A DNA stretch of 64,000 nucleotides from a virus (lineage: Duplodnaviria > Caudoviricetes). The stretch lies in IMG/VR virus record IMGVR_UViG_3300042885_001472; one strand, written 5' to 3'. The notes beneath the pieces were generated by a model. The model did no database searches. It was not told the origin of the DNA and saw only the letters and a list, made by a program, of their open reading frames with translations. Each line of letters opens with the position of its first letter. Position 1 is the first letter of the stretch. Made by a program: the position numbers and the translations under genes. This document shows, one piece after another, positions 6,683 to 60,145 of this stretch.

Positions 6683-7633
6683 ATGAAGAATTTAAAAAAT
6701 AGGATTAAAAACCAATTATTAGAACATAGTAGGGGTAAATTATTTAAAGTTATTGAGTCTAAATATTATTATTCCATGTATCAAGATGTATTCTTTGTTG
6801 GTACTTATGACGAGTGTGTAGATTTTATCGTAAATGGAAGAAGACATGATCTGGAAATACAACCTTTTGGGGGTGGTAATGATGAAAATGAAATTGTTGA
6901 TGAAGGTGTAAGTAAAATAGATGATAAAATTGAGTTTGATTATGAAACCAATGATCAGGATAGTAATATCAATACCAGGTTAGGTATCACATCTAAGAAT
7001 TTTAAATTTAAACCAAGATTTAAGACTTTACCTAAGAGTGGTGTAAAAGTTTTATCTGTATATCAAAAAACTTCTAATAAAGAAACTACTGAAATAATTA
7101 AAGACCTTAAACGTAGTGAAGAGGAAAGGGGTGTAAGTGAAAATGATTACAATTCATTTTTAACTCGTACAGCGATATTTTATGGTAGGGTATTAAAAGA
7201 TATGGAAATTGATACCATATTCTTAATGGAATCAAAATCATCTTTATCAAAAGATCTTACAGTTAAAATTAAATCAATATTACCAAATACAACGATTAAG
7301 TTATTAGATAACTCAATAGTTAAAGATATTAAGAATATTAAATTAAATAGAGAAGGGGCTAAACTATCTGATTACGAATATGAATTATTAGGTAACATAC
7401 ATAATAATGTAAAAACCAAGGGTGAATTTAGTCTTAAGAAAATCCATCCAAAACATAGAGCTTTATTTACCGATTGGATTAAAATTAATGAAGATTCTAT
7501 TAGAGATGTCACCGATAAGAATATAATTGTTGTTGATGATTATATAACCAGTGGTGTAACATTGGATGAAGTGTGTACACAACTTTTAAAGTTATCACCA
7601 AAATCTATATTATGTTTAACCATTATTAAATAA
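6683..7633 (+). CDS. phosphoribosyltransferase-domain protein
   Basis: PRPP loop IIVVDDYITSGVTL at C-terminus; start placed at ATG 6683 after ATATTTAT. Confidence 0.7.
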   Translation: MKNLKNRIKNQLLEHSRGKLFKVIESKYYYSMYQDVFFVGTYDECVDFIVNGRRHDLEIQPFGGGNDENEIVDEGVSKIDDKIEFDYETNDQDSNINTRLGITSKNFKFKPRFKTLPKSGVKVLSVYQKTSNKETTEIIKDLKRSEEERGVSENDYNSFLTRTAIFYGRVLKDMEIDTIFLMESKSSLSKDLTVKIKSILPNTTIKLLDNSIVKDIKNIKLNREGAKLSDYEYELLGNIHNNVKTKGEFSLKKIHPKHRALFTDWIKINEDSIRDVTDKNIIVVDDYITSGVTLDEVCTQLLKLSPKSILCLTIIK

Positions 7634-8910: not shown

Positions 8911-9060
8911 ATGACAGTAAAACAATTAATTGATAACTTATCAAATATTGATGGTGAAAAGATTAGTCGTAAAAATATTCAAGCACATTCTTTTAAAGAA
9001 ATACGAAAATCTCACAATATTCACAAAATGCTCGTGGTGGGTTCTTTTAATTGGTTATAA
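8911..9060 (+). CDS. 49-aa ORF ending in the first attC core; eroded distal cassette or junction
   Basis: Manual translation MTVKQLIDNLSN..GSFNWL*; stop lies in TTATAAC. Confidence 0.35.
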   Translation: MTVKQLIDNLSNIDGEKISRKNIQAHSFKEIRKSHNIHKMLVVGSFNWL

Positions 9061-9110
9061 CGTTTTGCGGCTAATAGACGTTTCTTAATGTTTATTAGGT
9101 GCGGTTATAA
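9055..9110. repeat. attC-like site 1 (56 bp)
   Basis: TTATAAC gttttgcgg ctaata..tattag gtgcg GTTATAA. Confidence 0.85.
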
Positions 9111-9167
9111 GCTGACGGTTACGAATGTTACTATGAAAAATTAATTTAAAAAAAAACAAATATAAAA

Positions 9168-9446
9168 ATGGAAAATAAGACAGCATTAATTGCAAAAAGA
9201 GATGAGTTACAAAAAGAAATTTATCTTTTAAATACTAAAATAAAAGAGCTTAATAAGATTGAATTATTTGAAAAATACAATGTTAAAATGGGGGACGAAA
9301 TTACTATTGTAGGTAAAAAAGGAGTAATAACAAATAACTGTGGTAGTTATCTTTACTATACCGCTTATAAAAAAGATGGGACTTTAGGCACTAGAGAAAG
9401 TAGGATTTGGAGTTTTGACACGTTTACAAAAACCGTTTCAAAGTAG
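9168..9446 (+). CDS. cassette 1 hypothetical protein
   Basis: ORF between sites 1 and 2. Confidence 0.75.
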   Translation: MENKTALIAKRDELQKEIYLLNTKIKELNKIELFEKYNVKMGDEITIVGKKGVITNNCGSYLYYTAYKKDGTLGTRESRIWSFDTFTKTVSK

Positions 9447-9457
9447 CTACCGTTTGC

Positions 9458-9554
9458 TTATAACGTTTTGCAGCTTTAAGAAGTGGCTGCCTAAAAATTA
9501 CTTCATTTGACAAACAATGCTTATGGCAGACATTTTTTAAAGGTGCTGTTATAA
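9458..9554. repeat. attC-like site 2 (97 bp)
   Basis: TTATAAC gttttgcag ctttaa..ttaaag gtgct GTTATAA. Confidence 0.85.
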
Positions 9555-9574
9555 GCTGATAAAAATTACGGATT

Positions 9575-9772
9575 ATGACCGCAAAAGAATTTGTTTTAGA
9601 AAAATGTCCAAAGGCAAGAGCTGAAAGGCAAGTGTCAGGTAGAATTAAAGGTATGCAGACTGTATATTATTTAATTCGTGAACGAGGGCAAACAATGTAT
9701 ATGGCAGAAGGCAAGAGCGAAAGTAACGCTTGGGTAAATGCTAAAAAGTTTCTATTGGAACGTGAACAGTAG
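9575..9772 (+). CDS. cassette 2 hypothetical protein
   Basis: ORF between sites 2 and 3. Confidence 0.75.
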   Translation: MTAKEFVLEKCPKARAERQVSGRIKGMQTVYYLIRERGQTMYMAEGKSESNAWVNAKKFLLEREQ

Positions 9773-9786
9773 TAATTTTTATTTCC

Positions 9787-9871
9787 CTATAACGGACGGA
9801 GCTTGTGGCTTAAATAAACCAAACAATGCTATTTTAACACTTCCGCTTTTTGCCACAAGGTTGTGTTAGTT
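9787..9871. repeat. attC-like site 3 (85 bp)
   Basis: CTATAAC ggacggag cttgtggc..gccacaag gttgt GTTAGTT; nearly identical to site 10. Confidence 0.85.
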
Positions 9872-9901
9872 TTTAGGCACTTAATTAAACATAAAAAGAA
9901 A

Positions 9902-10276
9902 ATGGAAAAAATAGAAATAGAATTATCAGAAAGCAAATTAAACACATTAAAAAGTGTAGAATATTTAAAAATAAATGATTTAGAGTTTGTTTCAAAAAAT
10001 AAATGCGCTCAATTATGTGCTGATTTTGCAATTGAACATCAAAAAAAGTCACTTAGGAAAACAGCATTAATCGGCTTAATCATAATGTTTTCATCATTTA
10101 TTTTTGCAATAATTGAAACGTTATACTTTGGCTCAAATTGGTATCCACAATCAAAAAATGAAGTAGTGTGTGATTATATAGCTTTATACACTTGCGGATT
10201 AGGCACTTCTTTATTTGGTTTTTGTATCATTAAGCAATTCATAATTGAAGTGTCTGAGAATATTAAGAGTGCTTGA
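9902..10276 (+). CDS. cassette 3 membrane protein (2 TM)
   Basis: ATG 9902 preferred over the track GTG at 9863, which overlaps the attC core. Confidence 0.7.
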   Translation: MEKIEIELSESKLNTLKSVEYLKINDLEFVSKNKCAQLCADFAIEHQKKSLRKTALIGLIIMFSSFIFAIIETLYFGSNWYPQSKNEVVCDYIALYTCGLGTSLFGFCIIKQFIIEVSENIKSA

Positions 10277-10363
10277 AACTAACGGACGAAGCTAACATAC
10301 GTTTGTAAACCACACCTAGCATTTAACCATTATAACTCAAATGTTTGTTAGGTTGTGTTACCA
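10277..10363. repeat. attC-like site 4 (87 bp)
   Basis: AACTAAC ggacgaag ctaaca..tgttag gttgt GTTACCA. Confidence 0.85.
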
Positions 10364-10415
10364 CACGTTTTGAATACTTAAATTAAATATCAATAGAAAA
10401 TTAAAATAAAAAATT

Positions 10416-10670
10416 ATGACACCAAAAGAGAAAGCAACCGAATTATATCAAAAATATTACAATAACTATGGTTACTATGGAATACCAGTAGATGCCGTTA
10501 AACATAGTAAAGAATGTGCTAATATTTGTATTGATGAAATACTGAAATCACAACCAATTGAACCAAATAATAGTAAACCCTTTGGAGTTAAAATACAATC
10601 TGTTAGGCAAAACTTTACTGATGCTGATGAATATTGGAAATTAGTTAAACAAGAACTTGAACTTCTTTAG
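10416..10670 (+). CDS. cassette 4 phage-type hypothetical protein (MTPKEKA.EL)
   Basis: ORF between sites 4 and 5. Confidence 0.75.
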   Translation: MTPKEKATELYQKYYNNYGYYGIPVDAVKHSKECANICIDEILKSQPIEPNNSKPFGVKIQSVRQNFTDADEYWKLVKQELELL

Positions 10671-10690
10671 AATATCCAAAACAAAATGAG

Positions 10691-10821
10691 TGGTAACGTT
10701 TTGCAGCCTTATTTAGTGCGGGCTTAAAAGCACTATGTTAATTTAAAACTGAATATTATGAATAGTAAAAATGTTTCCAACGAAGCCGAAAAACCCGCAT
10801 TGAATAAGGGTGCTGTTAGTG
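10691..10821. repeat. attC-like site 5 (131 bp)
   Basis: TGGTAAC gttttgcag ccttatt..aataagg gtgct GTTAGTG. Confidence 0.85.
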
Positions 10822-10985
10822 GCAGTTATTGTGTGAGAAAACACGATTTGTTTGCTGTAACATATCAAAAAGTAGCTGAAAATTTAAGTAAAGATGAAGC
10901 TGAAAGTATTAAAAACGAAATGCAAACAAAGTCAATAGAGGAGTGTGGTTGCCCTGTACCTGTATTTTTTGTAAGTGAAGTATAA
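10758..10985 (+). CDS. cassette 5 protein starting inside attC 5
   Basis: MNSKNVSNEAEKPALNKGAVS is encoded by the attC. Confidence 0.7.
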   Translation: MNSKNVSNEAEKPALNKGAVSGSYCVRKHDLFAVTYQKVAENLSKDEAESIKNEMQTKSIEECGCPVPVFFVSEV

Positions 10986-10989
10986 TTAC

Positions 10990-11069
10990 CACTAACGGCT
11001 GGATATTTAATCTGTTTGGCTGTCTGAGCAATTATGTAATAGCCAAATTGATTGAATATTTTGTTAGTT
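10990..11069. repeat. attC-like site 6 (80 bp)
   Basis: CACTAAC ggctggatatttaatc..gattgaatatttt GTTAGTT. Confidence 0.8.
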
Positions 11070-11107
11070 TACAGTAAAATAAACCAAATAAATTAAAATA
11101 AAAAAAT

Positions 11108-11497
11108 ATGAACAGAGAAATTAAGTTTAGAGCATGGAATGGTAAGGAAATGCGATGCGATGTTAATATAAATGATGGCAAACCTGTAAGGAAAGGCTAT
11201 CAATGGTTTAATGAATCAAATGATATTCATAACTCAGAGCCTATGCAACTTATAGGGTTAAAGGACAAAAATGGAGTTGAAATTTATGAAGGTGATATTT
11301 TAGAAGATAAAAATAAAAACTTTATGTATAATGTATTTAGGGTTGCAGGAGGTTTTGCAATAAATACGCATCAAAATGACTTTAATAGAAAAACTCCATT
11401 TTACACATCTTTTGATATGCAAACATCTTCATATATTAATGGAAATTGTGAGGTAAAAGGTAATATTTATCAACCTATATTAACATTAGAAAAGTAA
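11108..11497 (+). CDS. cassette 6 YopX family protein
   Basis: REIKFRAW..MQLIGLKDKNGVEIYEGDI..EVKGNIY. Confidence 0.9.
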   Translation: MNREIKFRAWNGKEMRCDVNINDGKPVRKGYQWFNESNDIHNSEPMQLIGLKDKNGVEIYEGDILEDKNKNFMYNVFRVAGGFAINTHQNDFNRKTPFYTSFDMQTSSYINGNCEVKGNIYQPILTLEK

Positions 11498-11520
11498 ACA
11501 TCAATGGTTTATTTTATTGA

Positions 11521-11600
11521 AACTAACGGCATCAAGCTAAAAGCTGACCGCCTTTATAAGCGGTTTGGTGATGGCGGTTTGATTTTAGGTTGGGTTATAA
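11521..11600. repeat. attC-like site 7 (80 bp)
   Basis: AACTAAC ggcatcaag ctaaaa..ttttag gttgg GTTATAA. Confidence 0.85.
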
Positions 11601-11651
11601 GCTGACGGTTACGAATGTTACTATGGAAAATTAATTTAAAAAAACATACAG

Positions 11652-11996
11652 ATGGAAAACAAAGGAGAATATTTGGGTTTATGTAATTTAAGCTCTTGTA
11701 CAACACACAAACCAGCAACTTATTATAATTACGGTACATCAAAATACTATTGTAAAGAATGTGCTGAAAGATTAAATTCTGATGAATATAATCAACGTGA
11801 TGCAATGCGTATGTTTGGACATGATTTATGTATTGAGGAATCAGTAAGACCTAAACCATTAAATGAAATTATTGAAAAACAAAATTACCTTCAATTTACT
11901 GAACCTTACATTATGGAATTAGCTTCTGATTTTAGACCAACAGTTAGACATAGCCCTTATATTAAATCTGAACCAAGTCAACAAAATATAATTTAG
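11652..11996 (+). CDS. cassette 7 Cys-containing hypothetical protein
   Basis: CNLSSC..YCKEC..HDLC. Confidence 0.7.
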   Translation: MENKGEYLGLCNLSSCTTHKPATYYNYGTSKYYCKECAERLNSDEYNQRDAMRMFGHDLCIEESVRPKPLNEIIEKQNYLQFTEPYIMELASDFRPTVRHSPYIKSEPSQQNII

Positions 11997-12087
11997 CTAA
12001 TCCAGACGAAGGATATGCTGATTTTGATAATGCACAAAAAGAGTGTAATAAGCTAAACAAAAATGTTTCAAAGTAGCTACCGTTTGC

Positions 12088-12141
12088 TTATAACGTCTGA
12101 TGATAAACAATCGTTTTAATGTTGTTTATCATTTGTTATAT
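12088..12141. repeat. attC-like site 8 (54 bp)
   Basis: TTATAAC gtctg atgataaacaa..ttgtttatcat tt GTTATAT. Confidence 0.8.
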
Positions 12142-12164
12142 TTAGTAAAAAATAATTTATACAT

Positions 12165-12344
12165 ATGAAATACCAAGCACTTAAAAAAGAATATTTTGCA
12201 GTTTATGAAAAAGAACCAAGACATCAGAATGAAAAAAATGGTGTAATACTTTCACCATATAATACGAAAGAAGATGCTGAAAAAGCGAGAGTTAAATATG
12301 GTTATGGTGATGATAATTATTATGTAGATAAACTCATAAATTAA
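12165..12344 (+). CDS. cassette 8 hypothetical protein (59 aa)
   Basis: Manual translation MKYQALKKEYFAVYEKE..YVDKLIN*. Confidence 0.65.
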   Translation: MKYQALKKEYFAVYEKEPRHQNEKNGVILSPYNTKEDAEKARVKYGYGDDNYYVDKLIN

Positions 12345-12354
12345 TTTTTATTGA

Positions 12355-12410
12355 ATATAACGTTTTGCAGCTAATAGCCGTTTCTTAATGGATATTAGGT
12401 GCGGTTATAT
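12355..12410. repeat. attC-like site 9 (56 bp)
   Basis: ATATAAC gttttgcag ctaata..tattag gtgcg GTTATAT; near copy of site 1. Confidence 0.85.
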
Positions 12411-12466
12411 TTAGTTGCCTAGAATAGCAATGCGGAGTGATAATTTAATAATTAAAAATAAAACAA

Positions 12467-12868
12467 ATGAAAACATTAACCATAAAACAACCGTGGGCTA
12501 GTTTGATTGCAAACGGAATAAAGGACATTGAAAATAGAACTTGGAAAACAAATCATAGAGGTAAAATTTATATTCATGCTGCTCAAATAAATTCAAAGGA
12601 TTGGGAGGACTTAATAAATTTACCCGATAATCAAAGAAATGAATTTTTTGAATTTGTTAAACACAAAATACTTAACACAAAATCGAATAGTAGCATTATT
12701 GGCGAAGTTGAAATAGTAGATTGTGTTCAAGATAGTAAATCAATTTGGGCTTTACCAAACCATTATCATTGGGTTTTAAAAAATGCTATAATTTACGATG
12801 AGCCTATTTTAAACGTAAAAGGTAAATTATCATTGTGGGAGTACACAGGTGCGGTGGGAGGCAATTGA
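12467..12868 (+). CDS. cassette 9 ASCH domain protein
   Basis: LTIKQPWASLIANGIKDIENRTW..RGKIYIHAA..VKGKLSLW. Confidence 0.9.
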   Translation: MKTLTIKQPWASLIANGIKDIENRTWKTNHRGKIYIHAAQINSKDWEDLINLPDNQRNEFFEFVKHKILNTKSNSSIIGEVEIVDCVQDSKSIWALPNHYHWVLKNAIIYDEPILNVKGKLSLWEYTGAVGGN

Positions 12869-12953
12869 ATATAACGGACGGAGCTTGTGGCTGAAATAAA
12901 CCTAACAATGCTATTTTAACACTTCCGCTTTTTGCCACAAGGTTGTGTTAGTT
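12869..12953. repeat. attC-like site 10 (85 bp)
   Basis: ATATAAC ggacggag cttgtggc..gccacaag gttgt GTTAGTT. Confidence 0.85.
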
Positions 12954-12987
12954 TACAGTAAAATAAACCAAATTAAAATAAAAAAAT

Positions 12988-13377
12988 ATGAATAGAAAAA
13001 TTAAATTTAGAGCTTGGGATAGTTTTTATAAAATGATGATACATTCATCTTATAAAGATTTTTCGGTATTATCAGAATTTTTTAAAGAATTAGAAGATAG
13101 AAAAGACAATGATTGCAAAATAATGCAATTTACAGGATTAAAGGATAAAAATGGAGTTGATATTTATGAGGGCGACATTATTAAATGCTCATTAGCTACT
13201 GAACCCGAAGATAAAGGATTTATTTGTTTATGGCGAAATTTTAAATGGGAATTTTGTAATGTTAGATTTAAAGATGACGAATCATTTAATTTAACCGACT
13301 TTGATTATTTAACTGTAAAAACAGAAGTAATTGGAAACATATATGAGAATGCGGATATGTTAACATCAGAAAAGTAA
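12988..13377 (+). CDS. cassette 10 YopX family protein
   Basis: RKIKFRAWD..MQFTGLKDKNGVDIYEGDI..EVIGNIYEN. Confidence 0.9.
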   Translation: MNRKIKFRAWDSFYKMMIHSSYKDFSVLSEFFKELEDRKDNDCKIMQFTGLKDKNGVDIYEGDIIKCSLATEPEDKGFICLWRNFKWEFCNVRFKDDESFNLTDFDYLTVKTEVIGNIYENADMLTSEK

Positions 13378-13400
13378 ACATCAATGGTTTATTTTATTGA

Positions 13401-13479
13401 AACTAACGGTTGGATATTGGCTTAGTTTGGCTTTCTAACCACTTATATAATGCCAAATTGAGCCAATATTTTGTTAGTA
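13401..13479. repeat. attC-like site 11 (79 bp)
   Basis: AACTAAC ggttggatattggct..agccaatatttt GTTAGTA. Confidence 0.85.
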
Positions 13480-13561
13480 TTTCGTTTACTTTTACTTTTT
13501 TAGGGTAGCATTAGAAAATTAAACTATCTGATTTATAGCACTTTACAAAAATAATGTAAAA

Positions 13562-13597
13562 TATATTTGTGTCCATCAAATACATTATGTACATTTA
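13562..13597 (+). promoter_or_regulatory. cassette 11 internal promoter
   Basis: TTTG 13566-13569, 20 nt, TACATTTA 13590-13597; TATATTTG at 13562 also fits. Confidence 0.5.
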
Positions 13598-13629
13598 CAC
13601 TCAGATAACAACAACTAAAAAATAAGATT

Positions 13630-13785
13630 ATGAAATTATTAAATTTAACAGTAAGAAACATTAAAGGAGAATTAGCAACTGGATGTTATAGCCACACTAA
13701 AAATAAGGTTAAATTTTACGTTGTTGTTTGGAATAATACTCAATTTTTTGGTACTGATTTAGAAACAATTTTTAACACTTTATAA
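13630..13785 (+). CDS. cassette 11 ORF a (51 aa)
   Basis: Manual translation MKLLNLTVRNIKGELATG..TIFNTL*. Confidence 0.55.
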   Translation: MKLLNLTVRNIKGELATGCYSHTKNKVKFYVVVWNNTQFFGTDLETIFNTL

Positions 13786-13786
13786 T

Positions 13787-14011
13787 ATGAAGATTAAACA
13801 AGAAAAAATAGAAATAAAAGTAAATATATTTTTTTTAGAAGAAAATGAAGATGTTTTATCTGAGATAAATAAAGCAATTAATAAAAAAACATTTACAGTA
13901 ATTGTAAAAAATAAAGTTTATCATGTTGCTGGACATGGAATGTTAAAAGATTTAGATAATTTAAAAGATGCTTTATTAGATATTAAGTTTTTAACAAATG
14001 CCTTATTATGA
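13787..14011 (+). CDS. cassette 11 ORF b, hypothetical
   Basis: ORF track. Confidence 0.65.
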   Translation: MKIKQEKIEIKVNIFFLEENEDVLSEINKAINKKTFTVIVKNKVYHVAGHGMLKDLDNLKDALLDIKFLTNALL

Positions 14012-14250
14012 AAACTCCAATATCACAAACAACAGCTAAAACAAACGCTAAAAAATACAATGATTATTTCACAGCTAATGAACAAACTTATAAAACAATG
14101 AAAAGAAGTAAACGCATAGAATTAACGGAAAGCACTATTAAGTATTTAGCAAAAAAAGCTATTGACGAAGGGACAAGTTTTAAACCTTATGTCGAACAAA
14201 TTTTGGAAAGTTTAGCCAATACACAGGTGGGCAGGAAAAAAGAAAAGTAA
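14008..14250 (+). CDS. cassette 11 ORF c, ribbon-helix-helix-like regulator
   Basis: KRIELTESTIKYLAKKAIDEGTSFKPYVEQILE. Confidence 0.55.
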   Translation: MKTPISQTTAKTNAKKYNDYFTANEQTYKTMKRSKRIELTESTIKYLAKKAIDEGTSFKPYVEQILESLANTQVGRKKEK

Positions 14251-14255
14251 ATGGA

Positions 14256-14349
14256 TACTAACAGTCGGCAATATGAAACGGTTGCCTTATAAGACGTTTC
14301 AAAATATAACTCAGTTTTCTGGCAACTGTTTTTATATTGCTTGTTATAG
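14256..14349. repeat. attC-like site 12 (94 bp)
   Basis: TACTAAC agtcg gcaatat..atattgc tt GTTATAG with inner gttgcc/ggcaac stem. Confidence 0.85.
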
Positions 14350-14367
14350 CCAGTTAATTTTAACGAT

Positions 14368-14598
14368 ATGTACAAAATAGTAAAAGAAATTCACACTTAT
14401 AAACAAGGTAGGATAAAATTTAGAATACACGAAAGATTTTTATGGAGATGGATACCAAGTGAAAGTTTTTCTGAATATGAAACCTATGAATTGGCAGAAA
14501 AAGCAATTATAGAAAAACTGAACGGCAAACATGGTGGTATTGTTGAATTGAAAAATGATGTTTATAAATTTTATCCGTATTCATTACCGATGCCTTAA
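14368..14598 (+). CDS. cassette 12 hypothetical protein
   Basis: ORF between sites. Confidence 0.75.
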   Translation: MYKIVKEIHTYKQGRIKFRIHERFLWRWIPSESFSEYETYELAEKAIIEKLNGKHGGIVELKNDVYKFYPYSLPMP

Positions 14599-14602
14599 TT
14601 GG

Positions 14603-14678
14603 CTATAACGGTTTGCAGCTAATAGACGGGCGGTTGAAACATAGTAGATGTCCGCCTGTTTATTAGGTGCTGTTATAG
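14603..14678. repeat. attC-like site 13 (76 bp)
   Basis: CTATAAC ggtttgcag ctaata..tattag gtgct GTTATAG. Confidence 0.85.
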
Positions 14679-14731
14679 GTAGGTTGTAACGAATGTTTAA
14701 TTAATACACAATATAAAAAAATAATAATAAT

Positions 14732-14914
14732 ATGATAGAAATAATAATTTGGCTAATTTTTTTCCCATTAGCAACAACAATAAATAGATACTTTTTAGAT
14801 AGAAATAAAAAGGATAGAAATGAGGAAGTAACATCTAAAGAAGTAAAAGACAAATTAGATTTTTTTGAGCTTGCCGTTTTTGTGATAGTGCTTATAATTT
14901 TAATCAAACGCTAA
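14732..14914 (+). CDS. cassette 13 small membrane protein
   Basis: two hydrophobic segments. Confidence 0.65.
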   Translation: MIEIIIWLIFFPLATTINRYFLDRNKKDRNEEVTSKEVKDKLDFFELAVFVIVLIILIKR

Positions 14915-14942
14915 AATGTTTCTAAATGATACCACAACTTAC

Positions 14943-15023
14943 CTATAACGTTAAGAAGCCTTGCTTAGTTTGGCTTTTTAACACACATAGCACTTGCCAA
15001 ATTGAGCAAGGGTTGTGTTAGTA
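14943..15023. repeat. attC-like site 14 (81 bp)
   Basis: CTATAAC gttaagaag ccttgct..agcaagg gttgt GTTAGTA. Confidence 0.85.
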
Positions 15024-15068
15024 TTAGGTGGCTTAAAAGTGAATATTAATTTTAAATAAAAATAAAAA

Positions 15069-15278
15069 ATGGAATACGGAATATTAAAAGTAGGTTGCAA
15101 AGTAAAATATACTGATGAAGCTAAAAAAGAATTGCCAACAGTTTTTAAAGATATAACAAAGGATAAAGTAAAAACTGTAAAATGGATTAGTAAAAATCAA
15201 GAGAACTGTGATTTTGTGGATGGTGACAGTTGTGATATTTACTGGTTAGAACTCGTAGAAGATTCTAAAGCCACTTGA
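15069..15278 (+). CDS. cassette 14 hypothetical protein
   Basis: ORF between sites; stop lies in the terminal inverted repeat. Confidence 0.75.
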   Translation: MEYGILKVGCKVKYTDEAKKELPTVFKDITKDKVKTVKWISKNQENCDFVDGDSCDIYWLELVEDSKAT

Positions 15279-15367
15279 TACTAACGGTATCAAGCTAAAA
15301 GCAGTTGCTAAACCAACCTAATATATTTGAGCGTTAACTCGCAAATTGATTTTAGGTTGTGTTAGGA
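15279..15367. repeat. attC-like site 15 (89 bp)
   Basis: TACTAAC ggtatcaag ctaaaa..ttttag gttgt GTTAGGA. Confidence 0.85.
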
Positions 15368-15394
15368 TTAGTTAAATTTTAAAAATAAAAAATT

Positions 15395-15589
15395 ATGTAT
15401 ATAACAAAAAGCGGTAAAGTTGTAATGTATAATAATGATGGTTACGATTATACTGAAGTTTTTAATAGTGATAGAAATTGGGAAGATAAATCAGGTATGT
15501 ACTTAAACTACTGTAAAAATTGCGAAAAACATTTTTTTGGTAATAAGTATAGAATAATATGCAAAAAATGTAGTAACGGTAAAATTTAA
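15395..15589 (+). CDS. cassette 15 zinc-ribbon protein
   Basis: CKNC..CKKC. Confidence 0.7.
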   Translation: MYITKSGKVVMYNNDGYDYTEVFNSDRNWEDKSGMYLNYCKNCEKHFFGNKYRIICKKCSNGKI

Positions 15590-15593
15590 TTGA

Positions 15594-15653
15594 ACCTAAC
15601 GGTTTGCAGCTAATAGACGTTTTTCTTAAAATGGATATTAGGTGCTGTTATAG
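15594..15653. repeat. attC-like site 16 (60 bp)
   Basis: ACCTAAC ggtttgcag ctaata..tattag gtgct GTTATAG. Confidence 0.85.
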
Positions 15654-15696
15654 GTAGGTTGTAACGAATGTTTAATTAATACACAATATAAAAAAT

Positions 15697-16044
15697 ATGG
15701 AAATAAGCGAATTAAGATTAGGTAATTATGTAATGTATATTGATAATTATATATTGCCAGTTACTACCGATACATTTTATTGGATATCCGAATGTGTTAG
15801 AACTGAAGATGATTACAAACCAATAGAATTAACAGAAGATATACTTTTTAAATGCGGGTTTAAATTGGCTATTGATGAAAATGTTTATACGTTAGATGAT
15901 ACAATTGAATTAACGCAAACTGATTATGGAAATAGTTTTTATTTTATGGGCAATTTTATAAAATCAGATATAAAATATTTACACCAATTACAGAACTTGT
16001 ATTTTGCAATAACTGATATTGAGTTAAATGTATCAAAAATATAA
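15697..16044 (+). CDS. cassette 16 'ELRxGN' phage family protein
   Basis: ELRLGNY..KPIELTE..HQLQNLYF; paralogue of 55436-56606 genes. Confidence 0.8.
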   Translation: MEISELRLGNYVMYIDNYILPVTTDTFYWISECVRTEDDYKPIELTEDILFKCGFKLAIDENVYTLDDTIELTQTDYGNSFYFMGNFIKSDIKYLHQLQNLYFAITDIELNVSKI

Positions 16045-16064
16045 ATAACAAAGCACCAACTTAC

Positions 16065-16140
16065 TTATAACGTTTTGCAGCTAATGGCTGGCGGCTCTAA
16101 GCGGTTATATAATGCCGCTTGACATTAGGTGCTGTTATGT
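16065..16140. repeat. attC-like site 17 (76 bp)
   Basis: TTATAAC gttttgcag ctaatg..cattag gtgct GTTATGT. Confidence 0.85.
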
Positions 16141-16201
16141 TGGTGTGTCGGAATGTGTGTGAGGCAGTTTTATTTTATTAATTTTTAAAAAAGCGAAGGA
16201 A

Positions 16202-16384
16202 ATGAATATACCAAATAGTTACGCAAAAGCAATAGTAGCCGACATGAAGGCTAAAATAAAAAAACATGAAAAGACTTGTTATTACAATGATAATTTATGT
16301 GAAGGTAAAGTTAGTAGAGTAAATTCACATCATGTTTTTTTATGTGAAAAATGCTTGAATGAATACAATAATATAAAAGATTAA
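16202..16384 (+). CDS. cassette 17 ORF a, Cys-rich
   Basis: ORF track. Confidence 0.65.
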   Translation: MNIPNSYAKAIVADMKAKIKKHEKTCYYNDNLCEGKVSRVNSHHVFLCEKCLNEYNNIKD

Positions 16385-16387
16385 ACT

Positions 16388-16660
16388 ATGAAAAAAGCAG
16401 AAGAAATACTAAAACAAAACTGCATAAAGCAACAATGGGACAAACAAATACTAACAGATGACTTTACATTGGAAGTTACTATACCATCAATGGAAGAATA
16501 CGCTAATCAATTCAAAGTAAAAATGTGGGGTTGCTATGCTTGTGGTAAATTACTTAGAATTTATGCTACACAAAAAGAAGCGGATGAAGCAAGAACAAGA
16601 TGGAGTACCGAATGTATTGTTATAGTAAAGGAAGTAGTTGTTGGTGACGGGGGTGCGTAG
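16388..16660 (+). CDS. cassette 17 ORF b, hypothetical
   Basis: ORF track. Confidence 0.7.
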   Translation: MKKAEEILKQNCIKQQWDKQILTDDFTLEVTIPSMEEYANQFKVKMWGCYACGKLLRIYATQKEADEARTRWSTECIVIVKEVVVGDGGA

Positions 16661-16689
16661 GCTTTTAAAAATTAATAAAATAAAATTGA

Positions 16690-17008
16690 ACATAACGGTT
16701 GCGGATATATGAATGTAAAAAATTAATAATCAGAACGATGATAACAACACAAAATTTAACAGAATTAGGTTTTAGTGAGATACTTAATGTATTCACTGGA
16801 AAACAAGTTTGGGTTTTAGGTGAAGAAGATAGAGAGATATGTGGAAACCCTTGTAGATTACCAATACTTTATTACAACATAGAAACCCAAACTTGTAAAG
16901 TAGTTAGGGGTGAATTTTGTGTTGTTCAACGAGAATGTAAATCAGAAGAAGAAATTAGAAAGTTTGTAGAATCTATTAATTTTTTATTTCATATATCCGT
17001 TGTTATAA
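16690..17008. repeat. attC-like site 18 (319 bp, mostly coding)
   Basis: ACATAAC ggtt gcggatatatgaa..ttcatatatccgt t GTTATAA. Confidence 0.75.
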
Positions 17009-17097
17009 ATAGTAAAAAACCTATCGAACAAGTATTATCCGAAGCGATTAAAGAATCTTATGATAAGATAAAAGACAATTTAGAACCACCACTTTAA
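16738..17097 (+). CDS. cassette 18 protein encoded mainly inside attC 18
   Basis: ATG 16738; reads through GTTATAA 17002 as HISVVINSKK. Confidence 0.7.
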   Translation: MITTQNLTELGFSEILNVFTGKQVWVLGEEDREICGNPCRLPILYYNIETQTCKVVRGEFCVVQRECKSEEEIRKFVESINFLFHISVVINSKKPIEQVLSEAIKESYDKIKDNLEPPL

Positions 17098-17110
17098 GGT
17101 TTTTTATTGT

Positions 17111-17187
17111 TTATAACGGTTTGCAGCTAATAAATCGGGCGATGGAAATATATGTAATTTCCGCCTGTTTATTAGCTGCTGTTATAG
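17111..17187. repeat. attC-like site 19 (77 bp)
   Basis: TTATAAC ggtttgcagctaata..tattagctgct GTTATAG. Confidence 0.85.
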
Positions 17188-17231
17188 GTAGGTTGTAACG
17201 AATGTTTAATTGAAACTTTAATATAAAAAAT

Positions 17232-17510
17232 ATGGAAAATATAAGTTTAAAAGATAAAGTAAGCGATATACTTGAATATTGGGAAAATGATTATGATGAA
17301 ACTTGTGATGCTACCGCTATTTCAAAAATAGAAGCATTGATAAAAGAGGAAAATCAAAAATTGAAAAAAGAAAATGATATTTATAAATCTTTTATATGTC
17401 ATGTAAAAAATAGTTTTAAAATGATTAATGATGATATAAGTGAAATAGATGTTTATAGAAGTTTAAGGACAAGAGCTGATGATATTTTAAATAACAATTT
17501 TCCTTTTTAA
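17232..17510 (+). CDS. cassette 19 hypothetical coiled-coil protein
   Basis: ORF between sites. Confidence 0.75.
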   Translation: MENISLKDKVSDILEYWENDYDETCDATAISKIEALIKEENQKLKKENDIYKSFICHVKNSFKMINDDISEIDVYRSLRTRADDILNNNFPF

Positions 17511-17548
17511 TTAACACAAAAAATGTTTCTAAATGATACACAACTTAC

Positions 17549-17657
17549 CTATAACGCTTTGCAGCTTTGAGCCGTTTACCAAATATTAATAACAAAAAAA
17601 TAAATAACGAATATGAATAACAGAAAAATAAAAAATGGCTTAAAGGTGTTGTTAGTG
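17549..17657. repeat. attC-like site 20 (109 bp)
   Basis: CTATAAC gctttgcag ctttgagcc..ggcttaaag gtgtt GTTAGTG. Confidence 0.85.
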
Positions 17658-17843
17658 GCTGTTTTATTTGTAAAATGTACTACAAATAAATTGATTATTA
17701 CTGAATGTCAAAGAGCTAATTTAACAAGCCTTTTTATTCAAAAAATGGAAATTGGAAAAGTTTATAAAATCAATTTATGTGATGAGTATTTTAACTACTC
17801 ATTTGATGGCGAAAAATATACTTTGGAACGATATAAAAAATAG
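17613..17843 (+). CDS. cassette 20 putative lipoprotein starting inside attC 20
   Basis: MNNRKIKNGLKVLLVAVLFVKC signal-peptide-like N-terminus. Confidence 0.6.
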   Translation: MNNRKIKNGLKVLLVAVLFVKCTTNKLIITECQRANLTSLFIQKMEIGKVYKINLCDEYFNYSFDGEKYTLERYKK

Positions 17844-17844
17844 C

Positions 17845-17929
17845 CACTAACGTTCCTCAAATATGAGTAGTAAATTTTTCTATTGAGATTTGGAAAATCA
17901 AAATTTATTTCTTATATTTGTTGTTATAT
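17845..17929. repeat. attC-like site 21 (85 bp)
   Basis: CACTAAC gttcct caaatatgag..cttatatttg tt GTTATAT. Confidence 0.8.
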
Positions 17930-17968
17930 TTAGTTTTCAGTTTGTTTTACCTTAAAAAAATATAAATT

Positions 17969-18214
17969 ATGATTAAAAAGAATGAAGAACAATTTGATAG
18001 TGGTGGTATAATACTTAAACACACTTTTCTTTTAGGTTTCGATGAACTAAGAATACCAACCGAAGATATTACAGAAGATATGATAGATACATATGTAAAA
18101 GAAAAATCATCAGAATTTGAATGGGAATTTAAGTTTTTTCTGATGATGAAATTAGGTTATATTGGGAAAGAAGGTGATATTTGGATAAAAGAACCAAAAC
18201 AAACTGAAAATTGA
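17969..18214 (+). CDS. cassette 21 hypothetical protein
   Basis: C-terminal KQTEN* is encoded by the cassette terminal inverted repeat. Confidence 0.75.
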   Translation: MIKKNEEQFDSGGIILKHTFLLGFDELRIPTEDITEDMIDTYVKEKSSEFEWEFKFFLMMKLGYIGKEGDIWIKEPKQTEN

Positions 18215-18344
18215 ATATAACGTTTTGTATTGGCGAAGAAGCGGAATTTTACCACTGAAGTTGATACGAAGCACCAATGCTTATTTACCTACAAATGTTC
18301 ATACGAAGCACTAAAACCGCTTTTTTGCCAATACTTTGTTAGTG
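18215..18344. repeat. attC-like site 22 (130 bp)
   Basis: ATATAAC gtttt gtattggc gaagaagcgg..ccgcttttttgccaatac ttt GTTAGTG. Confidence 0.85.
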
Positions 18345-18412
18345 GCTGATGCGGATTTTTAGCACTCATTTTCAGTAAGTTAGAAAATATTTTCAAAATA
18401 AAAGAAAATAAA

Positions 18413-18444
18413 TTTGGTTTGTATTGTTTTTGTATATACATTTG
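18413..18444 (+). promoter_or_regulatory. cassette 22 promoter facing the integrase
   Basis: TTTG 18413-18416, 20 nt, TACATTTG 18437-18444 (Bacteroidetes consensus). Confidence 0.7.
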
Positions 18445-18470
18445 CGTTACAATAATTAAATAAAAACAAA

Positions 18471-18749
18471 ATGACAAACGAACAATTAAACGCTATGAGC
18501 GTATCAGATTTAAGAGAATTAAATTCAAGAGTAATAGCTTATATTAAGTTTAAAAACTCAATGGCTAGTGGTGAAAACAAATCCAAAATATCAGTAGGTA
18601 TGACGGTAACGATTAAAACCAATAATCCTCTATTATTAGATTCTGTTTTTACTTTGGAAAAGATAAATAAAAAAAATGCTGTTTGTAGAGATATTAAAAC
18701 TCAACAAACTTGGAATGTTTTAATTTGTAACGTTATAGAAAAACCATAA
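18471..18749 (+). CDS. cassette 22 ORF a, hypothetical
   Basis: ORF track. Confidence 0.75.
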   Translation: MTNEQLNAMSVSDLRELNSRVIAYIKFKNSMASGENKSKISVGMTVTIKTNNPLLLDSVFTLEKINKKNAVCRDIKTQQTWNVLICNVIEKP

Positions 18750-18916
18750 TGGAAAAGAAAAAACGAGATGTAAGCCTTCCAAAAAGGTTTAATTCAGAAG
18801 ATGTAAATAAATGGCAAGAACAAGCTAATTTAACAACTGGTGGTAATCTTACCTTATGGATGGAAAACACATTGAATAACGCTGTAAAGAAGCAAAATGT
18901 CAAATCGAAGCAGTAA
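18749..18916 (+). CDS. cassette 22 ORF b (55 aa), RHH/CopG-like
   Basis: Manual translation MEKKKRDVSLPKRFNSEDVNKWQEQAN..GNLTLWMENTLN; TAATG coupling. Confidence 0.55.
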   Translation: MEKKKRDVSLPKRFNSEDVNKWQEQANLTTGGNLTLWMENTLNNAVKKQNVKSKQ

Positions 18917-18928
18917 CGTAGCATTTGC

Positions 18929-18960
18929 CACTAACTATTATATATAAACAAGTATAGTCT
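18929..18960 (-). other. attI-like site
   Basis: Lone CACTAAC core with no partner arm, about 46 bp upstream of the integrase; bottom strand GTTTATATATAATA-GTTAGTG. Confidence 0.6.
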
Positions 18961-18981
18961 AAACCCTTTAATAACAATACT

Positions 18982-19782
18982 TTGAACCAAAAAATTATAA
19001 AGATTTGTGAAGAAAAGTTTATATATTTAAACTATTCTCCAAGAACAAAGGATAACTATTTAATCCACATAAAATACTTTCTAAAATCTTTAGGGGATAA
19101 ACAAATCATCCATTGTAACTCTAAAGACTTCCAGTCTTATTTGGATAATTATAACTTCACATCTGTTTCACAACAAAACCAGATTATTAACTCAATCAGA
19201 TTCTTATATAAATTTGGGTTAAATAAAAAATACGATAAAGTTTCATTCAAACGACCAAAATCTGAAAAGAAGTTACCCCAGGTAATTGATCATTATCATA
19301 TAAAAGAGTCGTTATCTAAAATTAATAATCTTAAACACAAAACAATCTTATCTATAACATATTCAGTTGGGTTAAGAGTTTCTGAGGTTATAAATCTAAA
19401 AATAGAAGATATTGATTCAAGGAGAATGATCATCCATATTAAAAACGCTAAAGGTAGGAAAGATAGGATAGTTCCACTTTCTCAAAACATATTAGATTTA
19501 TTGAGGGTTTACTATAAAGAATATAGACCGGTGGAATACTTATTTAATGGTCAAAATAATCTACAATATACTTCTACTAGTTGTAATCAAATTGTTAAAA
19601 AACATTTAGGTGAAAAATATCATATCCACCAGTTAAGACATAGTTGTGCGACAAATCTCCTTGAAAATGGTACTGATTTAAAATTAATACAAAAAATATT
19701 AGGTCATTCTTCAGTAAAAACGACAGAAATTTATACACACGTTTCAAATCAAATGTTGAGTAAAATAAATCTACCAATTTAG
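18982..19782 (+). CDS. tyrosine recombinase (integron-integrase-like, no IntI insertion)
   Basis: TTG start; YSPRTKDNY SAM-like N-terminus; GLRVSE (R), AKGRKDR (K), HQLRH, LGHSS, TEIYT catalytic set. Confidence 0.92.
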   Translation: MNQKIIKICEEKFIYLNYSPRTKDNYLIHIKYFLKSLGDKQIIHCNSKDFQSYLDNYNFTSVSQQNQIINSIRFLYKFGLNKKYDKVSFKRPKSEKKLPQVIDHYHIKESLSKINNLKHKTILSITYSVGLRVSEVINLKIEDIDSRRMIIHIKNAKGRKDRIVPLSQNILDLLRVYYKEYRPVEYLFNGQNNLQYTSTSCNQIVKKHLGEKYHIHQLRHSCATNLLENGTDLKLIQKILGHSSVKTTEIYTHVSNQMLSKINLPI

Positions 19783-55245: not shown

Positions 55246-55434
55246 TTAGTCTGTTAGTATTTTATTGTAGTAGTCCTCTGCTAAATGTTCAAAACTATTC
55301 ATTCCGTAATTCATTGATTTCTGTCCTTCAATGTGTGTTTTAATTATTAACTCTTTTTCTTTTAAAAGCATTTGATTTCTAAGTGGATTTTGTACTTGAA
55401 GCATATCCATTAATTCATGCATTGGTGTTTTCAT
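55246..55434 (-). CDS. phage hypothetical protein (MKTPMHEL)
   Basis: ORF track. Confidence 0.65.
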   Translation of the reverse strand: MKTPMHELMDMLQVQNPLRNQMLLKEKELIIKTHIEGQKSMNYGMNSFEHLAEDYYNKILTD

Positions 55435-55435
55435 A

Positions 55436-55849
55436 TTAATCTTCTTTATCTGTTATTTCTTTATGTAGTAATCCAAACCATAAGTTCTGTATCTGATGAA
55501 CAAACTCAATATCAAATGATACAACGTAATACATTCCATCATCATGTTCAAAAGCACTATCAGTATATTCTTGATAGAAAGCCCAATTTTTAGCCCAGTC
55601 TCTATACTTAAAACAATAGTTATTATCTTCTATACCCCTACACCAGTAATCATCTTTTTTAAAGAATCCCCATTCAATGAAGTGATCGTCTGTTAGAACA
55701 ATACCTTTGGTTCTTTCATAACTTTCCAATGTGTCTTGAGTTTCCTCTAAGTCAACGACAGTACATGAATTATGTCCTATATCTATTACCTTAGTGATTC
55801 TATTACCTAAATCTACTAAATTTCCTATTCTAAGTTCTTGTGGTTTCAT
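55436..55849 (-). CDS. 'ELRxGN' family protein, copy 1
   Basis: ELRIGN..VHQIQNLWF. Confidence 0.75.
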   Translation of the reverse strand: MKPQELRIGNLVDLGNRITKVIDIGHNSCTVVDLEETQDTLESYERTKGIVLTDDHFIEWGFFKKDDYWCRGIEDNNYCFKYRDWAKNWAFYQEYTDSAFEHDDGMYYVVSFDIEFVHQIQNLWFGLLHKEITDKED

Positions 55850-55851
55850 AT

Positions 55852-56190
55852 CTATTTTAATTTAAGTTCTTCTCCTGTTAATACAAAGTATAAGTTCTGT
55901 AATTGATGGACATATTCAATTTTAATGTTAAGTAAATCTCCAAGGTCAAATGTTTTATTATCTTTATCATAAACTAAAGAACTATCTAATACTTGTTTTC
56001 TAAGAGTTGAGTGAACATCCCAATCTGATGTCCAAAATTCAAATTTCAACAACCATTCCTCAGTTAATGGAATTGGTTTACACCAACTCCTTTCAGCCTC
56101 AAATACTTCTTGTATAGTCCATGGGGTAACAATACAAGGTTCTCCATTATTATCATAAAAATTTCCTACCCTTAATTCTTGTACTTTCAT
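55852..56190 (-). CDS. 'ELRxGN' family protein, copy 2
   Basis: ELRVGN..PIPLTEEWLLKF..VHQLQNLYF. Confidence 0.75.
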   Translation of the reverse strand: MKVQELRVGNFYDNNGEPCIVTPWTIQEVFEAERSWCKPIPLTEEWLLKFEFWTSDWDVHSTLRKQVLDSSLVYDKDNKTFDLGDLLNIKIEYVHQLQNLYFVLTGEELKLK

Positions 56191-56192
56191 AT

Positions 56193-56606
56193 CTATTTTA
56201 ATTTAAGTTCTTTCTTTAAAACATAAAACAAGTTCTGAAGTTCATGTACATAATCTATATCATTATCTCCTAATGTAAAAGTAATACCATTTCCATTTTG
56301 TCTAAATGGAAATCCATTTATATTCCAGGATTTCCATTCATTATCCCCATAACCATAAGACTTATAAGTACCACCAAACTTCAATAACCATTCTTCTGTT
56401 AATGGGATTGGTTCATACTGACTAATAACATCCATGTATGGATTTTCTACTTGAGTACCACTAACATCTTTAGCTTCGTATTCAATTACTGGTTCTCCAT
56501 CTTTTACCCACCATGAATATATGTTGTTACCCATTATTCCACTTATGATATGAGTGGTGTGTTCATAATAAACATAGTTTCCTATTCTAAGATCTGTCGG
56601 TGTCAT
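56193..56606 (-). CDS. 'ELRxGN' family protein, copy 3
   Basis: DLRIGN..PIPLTEEWLLKF..VHELQNLFY. Confidence 0.75.
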   Translation of the reverse strand: MTPTDLRIGNYVYYEHTTHIISGIMGNNIYSWWVKDGEPVIEYEAKDVSGTQVENPYMDVISQYEPIPLTEEWLLKFGGTYKSYGYGDNEWKSWNINGFPFRQNGNGITFTLGDNDIDYVHELQNLFYVLKKELKLK

Positions 56607-57349
56607 ACGTTAATTATTTTATTTATTTTTCTAACTTTGAATGGGTGAAATATTTGAAGCCATAATTTTGTAAATCTCACATAAAATCTATTATCAACCT
56701 GATCACAAATATCTAAACCCATAACTCTTTGTTTAAGTTTTTTTAATTGTCTTTGATTACCATTGATTATACAATTTTTATATTCTTTTTTAAATTCTTT
56801 AACAGAGAATTTAACCATTCTCCAGAAGGGGATAATATGTACGTATGAGTATTCTCCGGATAACTTCCAAAATTCTAATTTCCACTTCCACCAAGAAGGT
56901 TGATATTCTTTTTCAATTGGGAATTTATGACCAAGTTCTTTAGGTATTAAATTAATTTTGTATTTTAATAGTTTTATCGTAATGGTTCTTTCTTTAATTT
57001 TATCTTTACCTAATTGGTAATGATAATTCCATGAATTAATGGCGAATGAATGACCGGTAGTTTGTTCTAAAGATTTAACTAGATCAGTATACGTTATACT
57101 ATCTGGTCGTTCACCGAAAAAACAATCACCATCTTCAATCCAGGAAACATCACATTGATTGGCGACACATTCTTCATTAGGACATTGATACCCATCTTTA
57201 AGTGAGGGAATTCCATTTGGATTTGAAACATGTTCACTCAAATCTTGATAATGATCTTTATGAGTAATACTTAATTTACTTCCACAAGAAGGACAATATA
57301 ATTCTCTTTTCATTAGTTTTATTTTTCTGGGTTTCCAAACATTATCCAC
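56603..57349 (-). CDS. hypothetical protein with CPSC motif
   Basis: ORF track; start probably at MKRELYCP. Confidence 0.65.
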   Translation of the reverse strand: MDNVWKPRKIKLMKRELYCPSCGSKLSITHKDHYQDLSEHVSNPNGIPSLKDGYQCPNEECVANQCDVSWIEDGDCFFGERPDSITYTDLVKSLEQTTGHSFAINSWNYHYQLGKDKIKERTITIKLLKYKINLIPKELGHKFPIEKEYQPSWWKWKLEFWKLSGEYSYVHIIPFWRMVKFSVKEFKKEYKNCIINGNQRQLKKLKQRVMGLDICDQVDNRFYVRFTKLWLQIFHPFKVRKINKIINV

Positions 57350-59384: not shown

Positions 59385-59506
59385 AGACAACAAACAATGT
59401 GACAAATGTAAGGATAATATTTTATAAAACAAAATAAAATATGTTAAAATTTAAAATATTTTTTATATTTAGCCGTAAGTGTAGTAATTGGTAGGGTTAT
59501 GGCCAA

Positions 59507-60145
59507 TTATAAGGCTTTTTTCATCAATAGTGAGGCTGTATACCCCTTTAAATTGAAAGTATCTTCTACCCAGGAACTTAGAACCACCTCTTTTTGATGA
59601 TATTTCATACCAAAAACAAATTCAAAAAATAACCAAATTTCATCATAATCAAACAAAAATTGTTTAGTTTTTTTATCCTGTTCTATAACAACTTTTCCAT
59701 CTTTTTTAAAAAAAATTGACTTAGGATAATATTCAGATTTAACAATTTCCAATTGATCAGGACTAAAGTAAAAGTTCATCCAGTTAGAGGGAGTTAATTT
59801 TAATCCACTAATGGATTTAAAGTAATTTGAATAGATTTCTTTAGTATAATGTTTAAATATTTTACTAATCTCATCATCACTAAAACCAATACCTTTTAAA
59901 TAAAGTACACTACCAAAAAGGTCTTCCATAGGGTTGGGATATTTTTTTTGTAATATACCTATCACTTTATTTAAATGAGGTTCTCTGATGGTTTTAAAAA
60001 TTTCTTTAATTTCATTTTCATCATAACCAGCTTCCTCTAAAAAGTTCTTAATATCTTTGTAAGAAGTTAAATTCATTTTAATCAACACATCAACAATTCT
60101 ATTATCAACGGTTTCTTTTAATATTTGTTTAATTAGTTTTTTCAT
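59507..60145 (-). CDS. leader-family tandem paralogue 1 (MKKLIKQILKE)
   Basis: VDNRIVDVLIK..LTPSNWMNFYF. Confidence 0.75.
   Translation of the reverse strand: MKKLIKQILKETVDNRIVDVLIKMNLTSYKDIKNFLEEAGYDENEIKEIFKTIREPHLNKVIGILQKKYPNPMEDLFGSVLYLKGIGFSDDEISKIFKHYTKEIYSNYFKSISGLKLTPSNWMNFYFSPDQLEIVKSEYYPKSIFFKKDGKVVIEQDKKTKQFLFDYDEIWLFFEFVFGMKYHQKEVVLSSWVEDTFNLKGYTASLLMKKAL

Follow-up and report, generated by a model that had tools for sequence, protein, structure and literature searches.

The I2 insertion of integron integrases is held to let an otherwise Xer-like enzyme recombine attC sites folded from single strands, and search tools define integrons by this insertion. In the published account (PMC7790495, PMC8138268), the recombination of single-strand attC sites is attributed to the I2 helix, and IntI captures the extrahelical bases of the folded site by means of I2 (PMC7790495). 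Smyshlyaev et al. (2021, PMC8138268) called the insertion essential for integron function and also reported that it "is not fully conserved" in an "integron-like" subgroup of simple tyrosine recombinases; that paper draws no link from the insertion-less members to cassette arrays. Attachment sites of the attC type have been described between small phage genes, including those of marine Flavobacteriia phages (Qi et al. 2023, PMC9892861), as clusters without an integrase or as fragments of bacterial integrons, with no insertion-less clade attached to the arrays. A full-text search, with most subscription journals beyond its reach, found no report that links a recombinase without the insertion to arrays of hairpin-bounded cassettes.

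We analyzed a stretch of 64,000 nucleotides (hereafter the window) from the IMG/VR virus record IMGVR_UViG_3300042885_001472. It contains a tyrosine recombinase gene whose product is, with a probability of roughly two in three, a site-specific recombinase dedicated to an integron-like cassette platform in large (180-566 kb) freshwater and environmental phages, probably of Bacteroidota. The features of the window discussed below, all on the + strand, are the following.

9055..18935: cassette array; small co-oriented ORFs between imperfect palindromes bounded by NNNTAAC..GTTANNN
12088..12141: recurrent hairpin site of 54 nt, z = -5.0
about 12135..12362: cassette in common with locus L017 (7982-8211), 93.5% identity, from GTTATAT to ATATAACG
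about 16690..17119: unit in common with locus L016 (5307-5735), 96.7% identity, from one TAAC core to the next TAAC core
18929..18981: attI-like junction; CAC-TAAC, then TATTATATATAAAC and the integrase leader
18982..19782: integrase ORF; TTG start, 266 aa, tyrosine recombinase made up of a SAM-like core-binding domain (N-terminal) and a catalytic domain
19450..19629: lysine-to-HxxR interval of the integrase (codons K157 to H216); 59 residues versus 106 in IntI1

The locus resembles classical integrons (IntI1 with attI1 and attC; Vibrio cholerae IntIA with its VCR sites, structure 2a3v) in that the gene of a tyrosine recombinase adjoins a conserved primary site and a cassette array. Counted from the integrase, the primary site comes first and the cassettes follow, each with a hairpin after it. 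The sites are imperfect palindromes of about 50-140 nt with AAC and GTT cores, R- and L-type boxes and unpaired features, and the folding strand carries AAC at its 5' end, as does the attC bottom strand. Cassette ends are complementary, turnover is highest beside the integrase, and the closest structural match of the enzyme is VchIntIA. The differences concern the enzyme, the sites, the cassettes and the carrier. The phage enzyme has 266 aa without the I2 region and falls below both IntI cut-offs, whereas IntI enzymes have about 320-340 aa; the bulge is asymmetric and lies in the 5' arm, in contrast to the symmetric unpaired spacer and extrahelical bases of attC; and the carrier is a large phage. 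The cassette ORFs all lie on the integrase strand and read towards the integrase, so that a Pc promoter on the attI side cannot drive them.

The recombinase and the IntI insertion

Several homologues have ATG at the codon aligned with the TTG start of the window gene, and we therefore regard this start as sound. Pfam assigned a Phage_integrase domain (127 bits) and an N-terminal Phage_int_SAM_4 domain to the 266-aa protein; beyond these SAM-like and catalytic domains, no arm-binding domain was found. The full R-K-H-R-H-Y set is present (R132, K157, H216, R219, H242 and Y251). Among 53 homologues, H216 is nearly invariant and the other five residues are invariant, and judged from these conserved residues the enzyme looks active.

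The AlphaFold2 model of the enzyme has a high-confidence fold (mean pLDDT 91.3, pTM 0.82). Its top structural match was VchIntIA bound to attC (2a3v; E 1.2e-14, TMq 0.82), with XerA next, whereas the best PDB match by sequence was P. abyssi XerA (4a8e, E 1e-33). The mismatch between the best match by fold and the best match by sequence can be traced in part to the closed, DNA-bound-like arrangement of the domains in the model.

A preliminary description of this DNA had counted about 55 residues between the catalytic lysine and HQLRH, and had concluded that the IntI-specific insertion was absent from an integrase belonging to a distinct clade. Residue 156 opens the motif AKGRKDR and residue 216 the motif HQLRH; the interval amounts to 59 residues from K157 and to 56 from K160, in agreement with the number first given. 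To place this interval, MAFFT was used to align the window protein with IntI1 (taken from E. coli plasmid p23), seven Bacteroidota IntIs (proteins with full-length matches to the integron-integrase model), E. coli XerC and XerD, and three insertion-less relatives. The interval measures 103-106 residues in IntI1 and the seven Bacteroidota IntIs, 65-72 in XerC and XerD, and 56-62 in the window protein and the insertion-less relatives.

The absence of the insertion was borne out in three ways. Two IntI-specific blocks are empty in the row of the window protein: one of about 30 aa that contains ALPDALERKYP and corresponds to the I2 region, and a second of about 11 aa. These inserts would sit after about residue 183 and about residue 192, respectively. 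The HMMER matches to TIGR02249 and to VchIntIA (2a3v) were each broken into two stretches that flank the gap. In the AlphaFold model, there is only a loop (residues 182-197) at the position of the extra helix region of IntI.

The protein did not score as a canonical IntI, nor did it pass the cut-off of any Xer model:

XerA_Arch (best NCBIfam model): 180.9 bits; cut-off 220; not passed
XerD model: 156.2 bits; cut-off 329.6; not passed
XerC model: 153.2 bits; cut-off 335.15; not passed
IntI TIGR02249: 150.6 bits; cut-off 265; not passed, match in two stretches
IntI NF011946: 92.7 bits; cut-off 435; not passed, match in two stretches

In a phylogeny of 90 rows calculated with IQ-TREE, from which archaeal XerA and VchIntIA sequences were left out, the close homologues formed one clade (SH-aLRT 99; 96 with five more distant representatives added). 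IntI1 and the Bacteroidota IntIs formed a clade of 11 rows (SH-aLRT 100) that excludes the window enzyme, and the XerC/D-like proteins from E. coli and Sunxiuqinia formed a third (SH-aLRT 100), also apart from it. The distinct clade of the preliminary description was thus recovered. IntI and the insertion-less radiation branch from a shared, poorly resolved base that is separate from XerC/D, and a tree with IntI as the sister of the phage clade was not rejected in the AU-test (p=0.229). This shared base, together with the incomplete conservation of the insertion, recalls the "integron-like" subgroup of Smyshlyaev et al.

XerC/XerD, archaeal XerA and other simple Xer types share with the window enzyme the size class, the two domains and the missing arm-binding domain, and XerA_Arch is its best model. 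The window enzyme differs from them in being phage-borne, in having no paired partner gene, in scoring below the Xer cut-offs, and in being tied to cassette arrays, not to a single dif site, its setting being a phage array and no replication terminus. Lysogeny integrases of the lambda and P4 types differ from it too; the window enzyme has no arm-binding domain, and in two large records classed as proviruses the gene is not at the edge but 35-80 kb from the record ends.

Hairpin sites and their association with the recombinase

The plain pattern TAAC-N(20-50)-GTTA occurs barely above chance in the window (95 matches versus 74 expected), and a folding criterion was therefore added to the scanner. 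Sites were required to pair TAAC to GTTA in a single hairpin with at least 14 pairs and a dG of -7 kcal/mol or lower. This strict scanner found 16 sites inside the array, where a first reading of the sequence had given 22, and one site in the other approximately 55 kb of the window.

We applied the scanner to 43 loci that contain homologues of the integrase. Within the 256.6 kb on the upstream side of the integrase it located 107 sites, and within the 375 kb on the downstream side 9, corresponding to densities of 4.17 and 0.24 per 10 kb, a 17-fold difference (binomial p=1e-31). In 33 of the homologue loci the DNA extends at least 1 kb upstream of the integrase, and 31 of these contain one or more co-oriented TAAC..GTTA hairpins there. 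Sites built to the same plan also precede relatives with 61% (L086), 50% (L090) and 47% (L089) identity to the window enzyme. Two scanners detected no hairpin array near the integrases of phages Ingeline and Freya (38% identity). One check suggested in the preliminary description was whether homologues always flank TAAC..GTTA arrays; the association is real and extends to relatives of about 47-50% identity, and Ingeline and Freya show that it is not general to insertion-less relatives.

A relative on a plasmid of Chryseobacterium sp. SNU WT5 (L051, 43.6% identity) has no TAAC/GTTA site. This protein of 347 aa is insertion-less and is annotated as "site-specific tyrosine recombinase/integron integrase". 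Downstream of its gene are three identical 77-nt AAC..GTT hairpins (6989-7065, 9084-9160 and 11465-11541 of L051), which on the - strand read AACGG, a 5-nt bulge, a stem and then TGTT. The plasmid may harbor a related platform with a different layout.

The hairpins fall into 41 sequence families that keep one architecture. On the 5' side, TAAC-G is followed by an unpaired K-T-T(K), by a stem that opens approximately as G-S-R-R-T-A-T-A, and by a variable distal stem and loop; the 3' side returns with T-A-T-A-Y-Y-S-C, a T and GTTA. TAAC and GTTA correspond to the R box, which is followed by the asymmetric bulge in the 5' arm; the L box is degenerate (G-TATA) and resembles an inverted R box. The sequence of the attI-like site, TAAC-TATTA-TATATAA, can be taken as a duplex version of this design.

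Thirteen of the 15 correctly delimited window sites folded with z values of -3 to -7.8 relative to shuffled controls; the stretch 18255-18347, for which the bounds of the last hairpin had been guessed, folded poorly. Copies of the 54-nt hairpin at 12088-12141, often several per locus, are present with 91-100% identity in more than 20 further phage loci. For 101 of 103 unique sites, the + strand folds into a more stable hairpin than the - strand does, with means of -12.7 and -9.2 kcal/mol, respectively (p=1e-18), and 317 G.T pairs were counted on the + strand versus 51 on the - strand. Recognition of the duplex only would not generate such an asymmetry, which favors selection on the folded single strand. 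The mRNA of the ORFs has the sequence of this same + strand, and a role at the RNA level fits the enrichment of G.T pairs equally well.

The attI-like junction and the exchange of cassettes

A conserved TAAC-TATNATATAT junction (NNNTAAC-TAT(T/C/A)ATATAT) is located approximately 50 bp before every full-length homologue. Between phages, the DNA is conserved rightwards from the TAAC of this junction and unrelated leftwards. The phage pairs L025/L026 (100% over 1229 nt), L004/L016, L004/L023, L010/L011 and L030/L031 show 92-100% identity across the integrase gene and the adjoining downstream DNA, and in each pair all similarity ends exactly at this TAAC. Because near-identical phages diverge at this very point, the TAAC is a hot spot for the replacement of cassettes, as is attI in integrons, and we infer that the junction acts as the primary, attI-like site. 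The integrase is the sole conserved feature adjoining the arrays, in loci that otherwise share almost no DNA.

Units with 93-100% identity are common to phages whose integrase genes share only about 70% DNA identity. On both sides of the cassette at about 12135-12362, which the window shares with L017, the interiors of the hairpins differ. Of the unit shared with L016, a third locus, L024, has only the part that corresponds to 16681-17016 of the window. Within this part, a 319-nt TAAC..GTTA unit (16690-17008) contains the start and most of a 132-aa ORF (16699-17097); the copy in L024 lacks the 110-nt tail that completes the ORF in the window. Exchange at the core may therefore also swap the C-termini of proteins.

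Twenty shared segments have a length of at least 150 nt. Of the 19 whose left end could be scored, 13 have it at a TAAC, versus about 9% expected; the right end was at a TAAC in 6 and at a GTTA in 3. These boundaries suggest that whole cassettes are transferred through exchange at the core. The unit exchanged would usually consist of a hairpin interior, GTTANNN, the ORF and NNNTAA, with an occasional exchange at GTTA. Since some units also end at GTTA, a single cleavage point on one strand cannot explain all of the boundaries.

In contigs from four lake metagenomes, the depth of the 400-nt bins at 11708-12509 was about 5-60 times that of the surrounding array. The summed contig depth at hairpin 12088-12141 and its neighboring cassette was 15-320, versus about 2-15 for most of the array. 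In three of the four lake runs, depth was also raised at the attI-like site and the 5' end of the integrase gene (18926-19326). From these depths, we conclude that the hairpin with its cassette and the pieces of the junction are shared with far more common lake phages. The same lake contigs (Logan) were considered as evidence for excision and rejected: breaks occur at hairpins, joints at cores are few (three runs, for example, join 12087 to 18932) and are flanked by only 21-64 nt, and the sequences used were contigs.

Modules flanked by PeSLs have been described in T4-type phages, and the hairpins of the window could similarly be regulatory cassettes, or mainly RNA elements that act in termination, processing or stabilization. 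The mosaicism would then stem from homologous or illegitimate recombination between repeated hairpins, with no site-specific enzyme involved. The enrichment of G.T (G.U) pairs on the sense strand agrees with this explanation, as do the hairpin families that are repeated at more than 90% identity within and between phages and could serve as substrates for homologous recombination. However, the 4-5-nt core is where the breakpoints lie, even next to hairpin interiors that bear no relation to each other, and the sharpest breakpoint is at the attI-like junction, which is no hairpin. In addition, no T run follows the hairpins of the window sites, and a recombinase is always attached to the arrays. 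We consider this explanation to be improbable.

Carriers, host integrases and a possible mechanism

Metagenomes yielded more than 100 clusters of 266-267-aa proteins with 74-91% identity, and the contigs that carry them reach 566 kb. Relatives are present on 42 IMG/VR viral contigs, with records that include one of 464.6 kb (98% complete), one of 318 kb (96%) and one of 281 kb (94%). The clade of the window enzyme occurs mostly on phage contigs, and DNA of the window was detected in lake and freshwater metagenomes sampled between 2016 and 2024. The window itself encodes an endolysin, a DNA methyltransferase and mostly small genes of no assigned function. Among the GenBank phages searched, no relative exceeded 39% identity; the nearest named relatives are the annotated integrases of Ingeline and Freya, two temperate-looking flavobacterial phages. 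Only four relatives were found among 185,579 species genomes (one genome per species), none in a clear prophage context; three are from Bacteroidota (Fermentimonas, Sunxiuqinia and Chitinophagaceae) and one is from a Gammaproteobacteria MAG. The carrier is a large uncultured phage, and its host probably belongs to the Bacteroidota.

Two of the loci carry a broken integrase gene. In L040 (10489-11274) and L042 (4300-5088), an antisense gene for a GIY-YIG homing endonuclease of 261-262 aa splits the integrase gene and takes the place of part of it; the integrase residues missing are approximately 173-231 and 139-235, respectively. Hairpin sites are still present upstream in both loci, which indicates that arrays outlive the enzyme, a point against its proposed role.

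Could the enzyme be an ordinary housekeeping recombinase of the phage that functions in lysogeny, or in the resolution of genome or plasmid dimers at TAAC-TATTATATAT, and that sits beside a variable region incidentally? Its match to phrog_1 ("integrase") points in this direction, as do its nearest named relatives, which have no hairpin array, and the classification of two large records as proviruses by IMG/VR. In those two records, however, the gene is 35-80 kb from the record ends, the enzyme has no arm-binding domain, and the relatives in species genomes are few and without clear prophage context. An incidental position is also at odds with the conservation of the integrase alone beside arrays in loci that have almost no other DNA in common, with the boundary between variable and conserved DNA exactly at the integrase TAAC in every pair compared, and with the identical TAAC core that bounds the cassettes. 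We give this possibility little weight.

Integrases of the host offer another explanation, in which the hairpins are true attC sites served in trans by a canonical, I2-bearing IntI, and the phage enzyme is otherwise employed. Full-length matches to TIGR02249 above the cut-off (about 300-497 bits) were present in 90 of 301 sampled Bacteroidota genomes (G008-G296; loci L062-L081), and all seven of the Bacteroidota IntIs that were aligned contain the insertion; this frequency of canonical IntI-type genes in the phylum was unexpected. The AAC/GTT cores are those of attC, and IntI1 recombines attC sites of virulent phages, including a Polaribacter phage (PMC9892861). Service in trans leaves unexplained why the array ends approximately 50 bp before the integrase at a conserved site in 31 of 33 loci, and the hairpins have conserved features of their own (TAACG, the KTT bulge and the TATA L box) that covary with the integrase clade; we therefore think it unlikely. 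None of the three alternatives accounts for the exact and universal TAAC breakpoint beside the integrase, and all are given a low probability.

Several observations make the window enzyme the probable catalyst of the exchanges, an assignment by adjacency: the linkage to the arrays is constant, the window-type integrase is the sole PF00589 gene in four of five large records, and the 464.6-kb, 98% complete record (G001) contains no canonical IntI. The enzyme would be a simple two-domain tyrosine recombinase of the Xer/IntI type that either never had the IntI insertion (I2 region) or lost it. It would bind a core of two boxes, namely the R box (NNNTAAC with GTTANNN) and the degenerate, inverted L box (about G-TATA/TATA-C), separated in the 5' arm by the conserved bulge of 3-5 nt (G-K-T-T). 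At the attI-like site, this core would be ordinary duplex DNA; at cassette joints, it would be rebuilt by folding of the + strand. The substrate at these joints is presumably folded single-stranded DNA, not a cruciform or duplex.

Strand exchange would take place in or beside TAAC, where the exact phosphodiester bond cut in the core presumably lies. A hairpin recombining with the attI-like site would lead to insertion next to the integrase, and recombination between two hairpins to excision and shuffling. As both boxes are conserved in sequence, sequence-specific recognition similar to that of Xer or Cre is possible, and it would take over the part that I2 plays in IntI by capturing extrahelical bases.

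We propose, tentatively, that insertion-less IntI/Xer-like recombinases run true hairpin-cassette platforms in Bacteroidota phages and, judging from small samples, in Bacteroidota plasmids. If this were the case, the I2 helix would not be a general requirement for recombination of folded single-strand sites, and the phage clade, natural, widespread and tied to attC-like arrays, would provide a direct test of the need for I2. The clade is a candidate for an ancestral or a parallel form of the integron; the platforms would represent the ancestral state of classical integrons or an independent second invention. Very large phages would trade small accessory genes by such platforms. They would escape integron surveys based on an IntI-specific profile, their arrays might at best be called CALINs, as the preliminary description supposed, and a large pool of cassettes would be missed by current integron finders.

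Two further regions of the window contain repeats. An open-ended ORF at the left edge (2-1699) consists of 27-nt (9-residue) tandem repeats, at least 13 copies in two blocks, and from its sequence looks like a repetitive fiber or surface protein. On the - strand, diverged runs of tandem paralogues are located at 59500-61250 and 55430-56630. These consist of blocks with 76-79% identity at a spacing of 520-1240 nt and include three genes of about 112-137 aa with common 5' ends.
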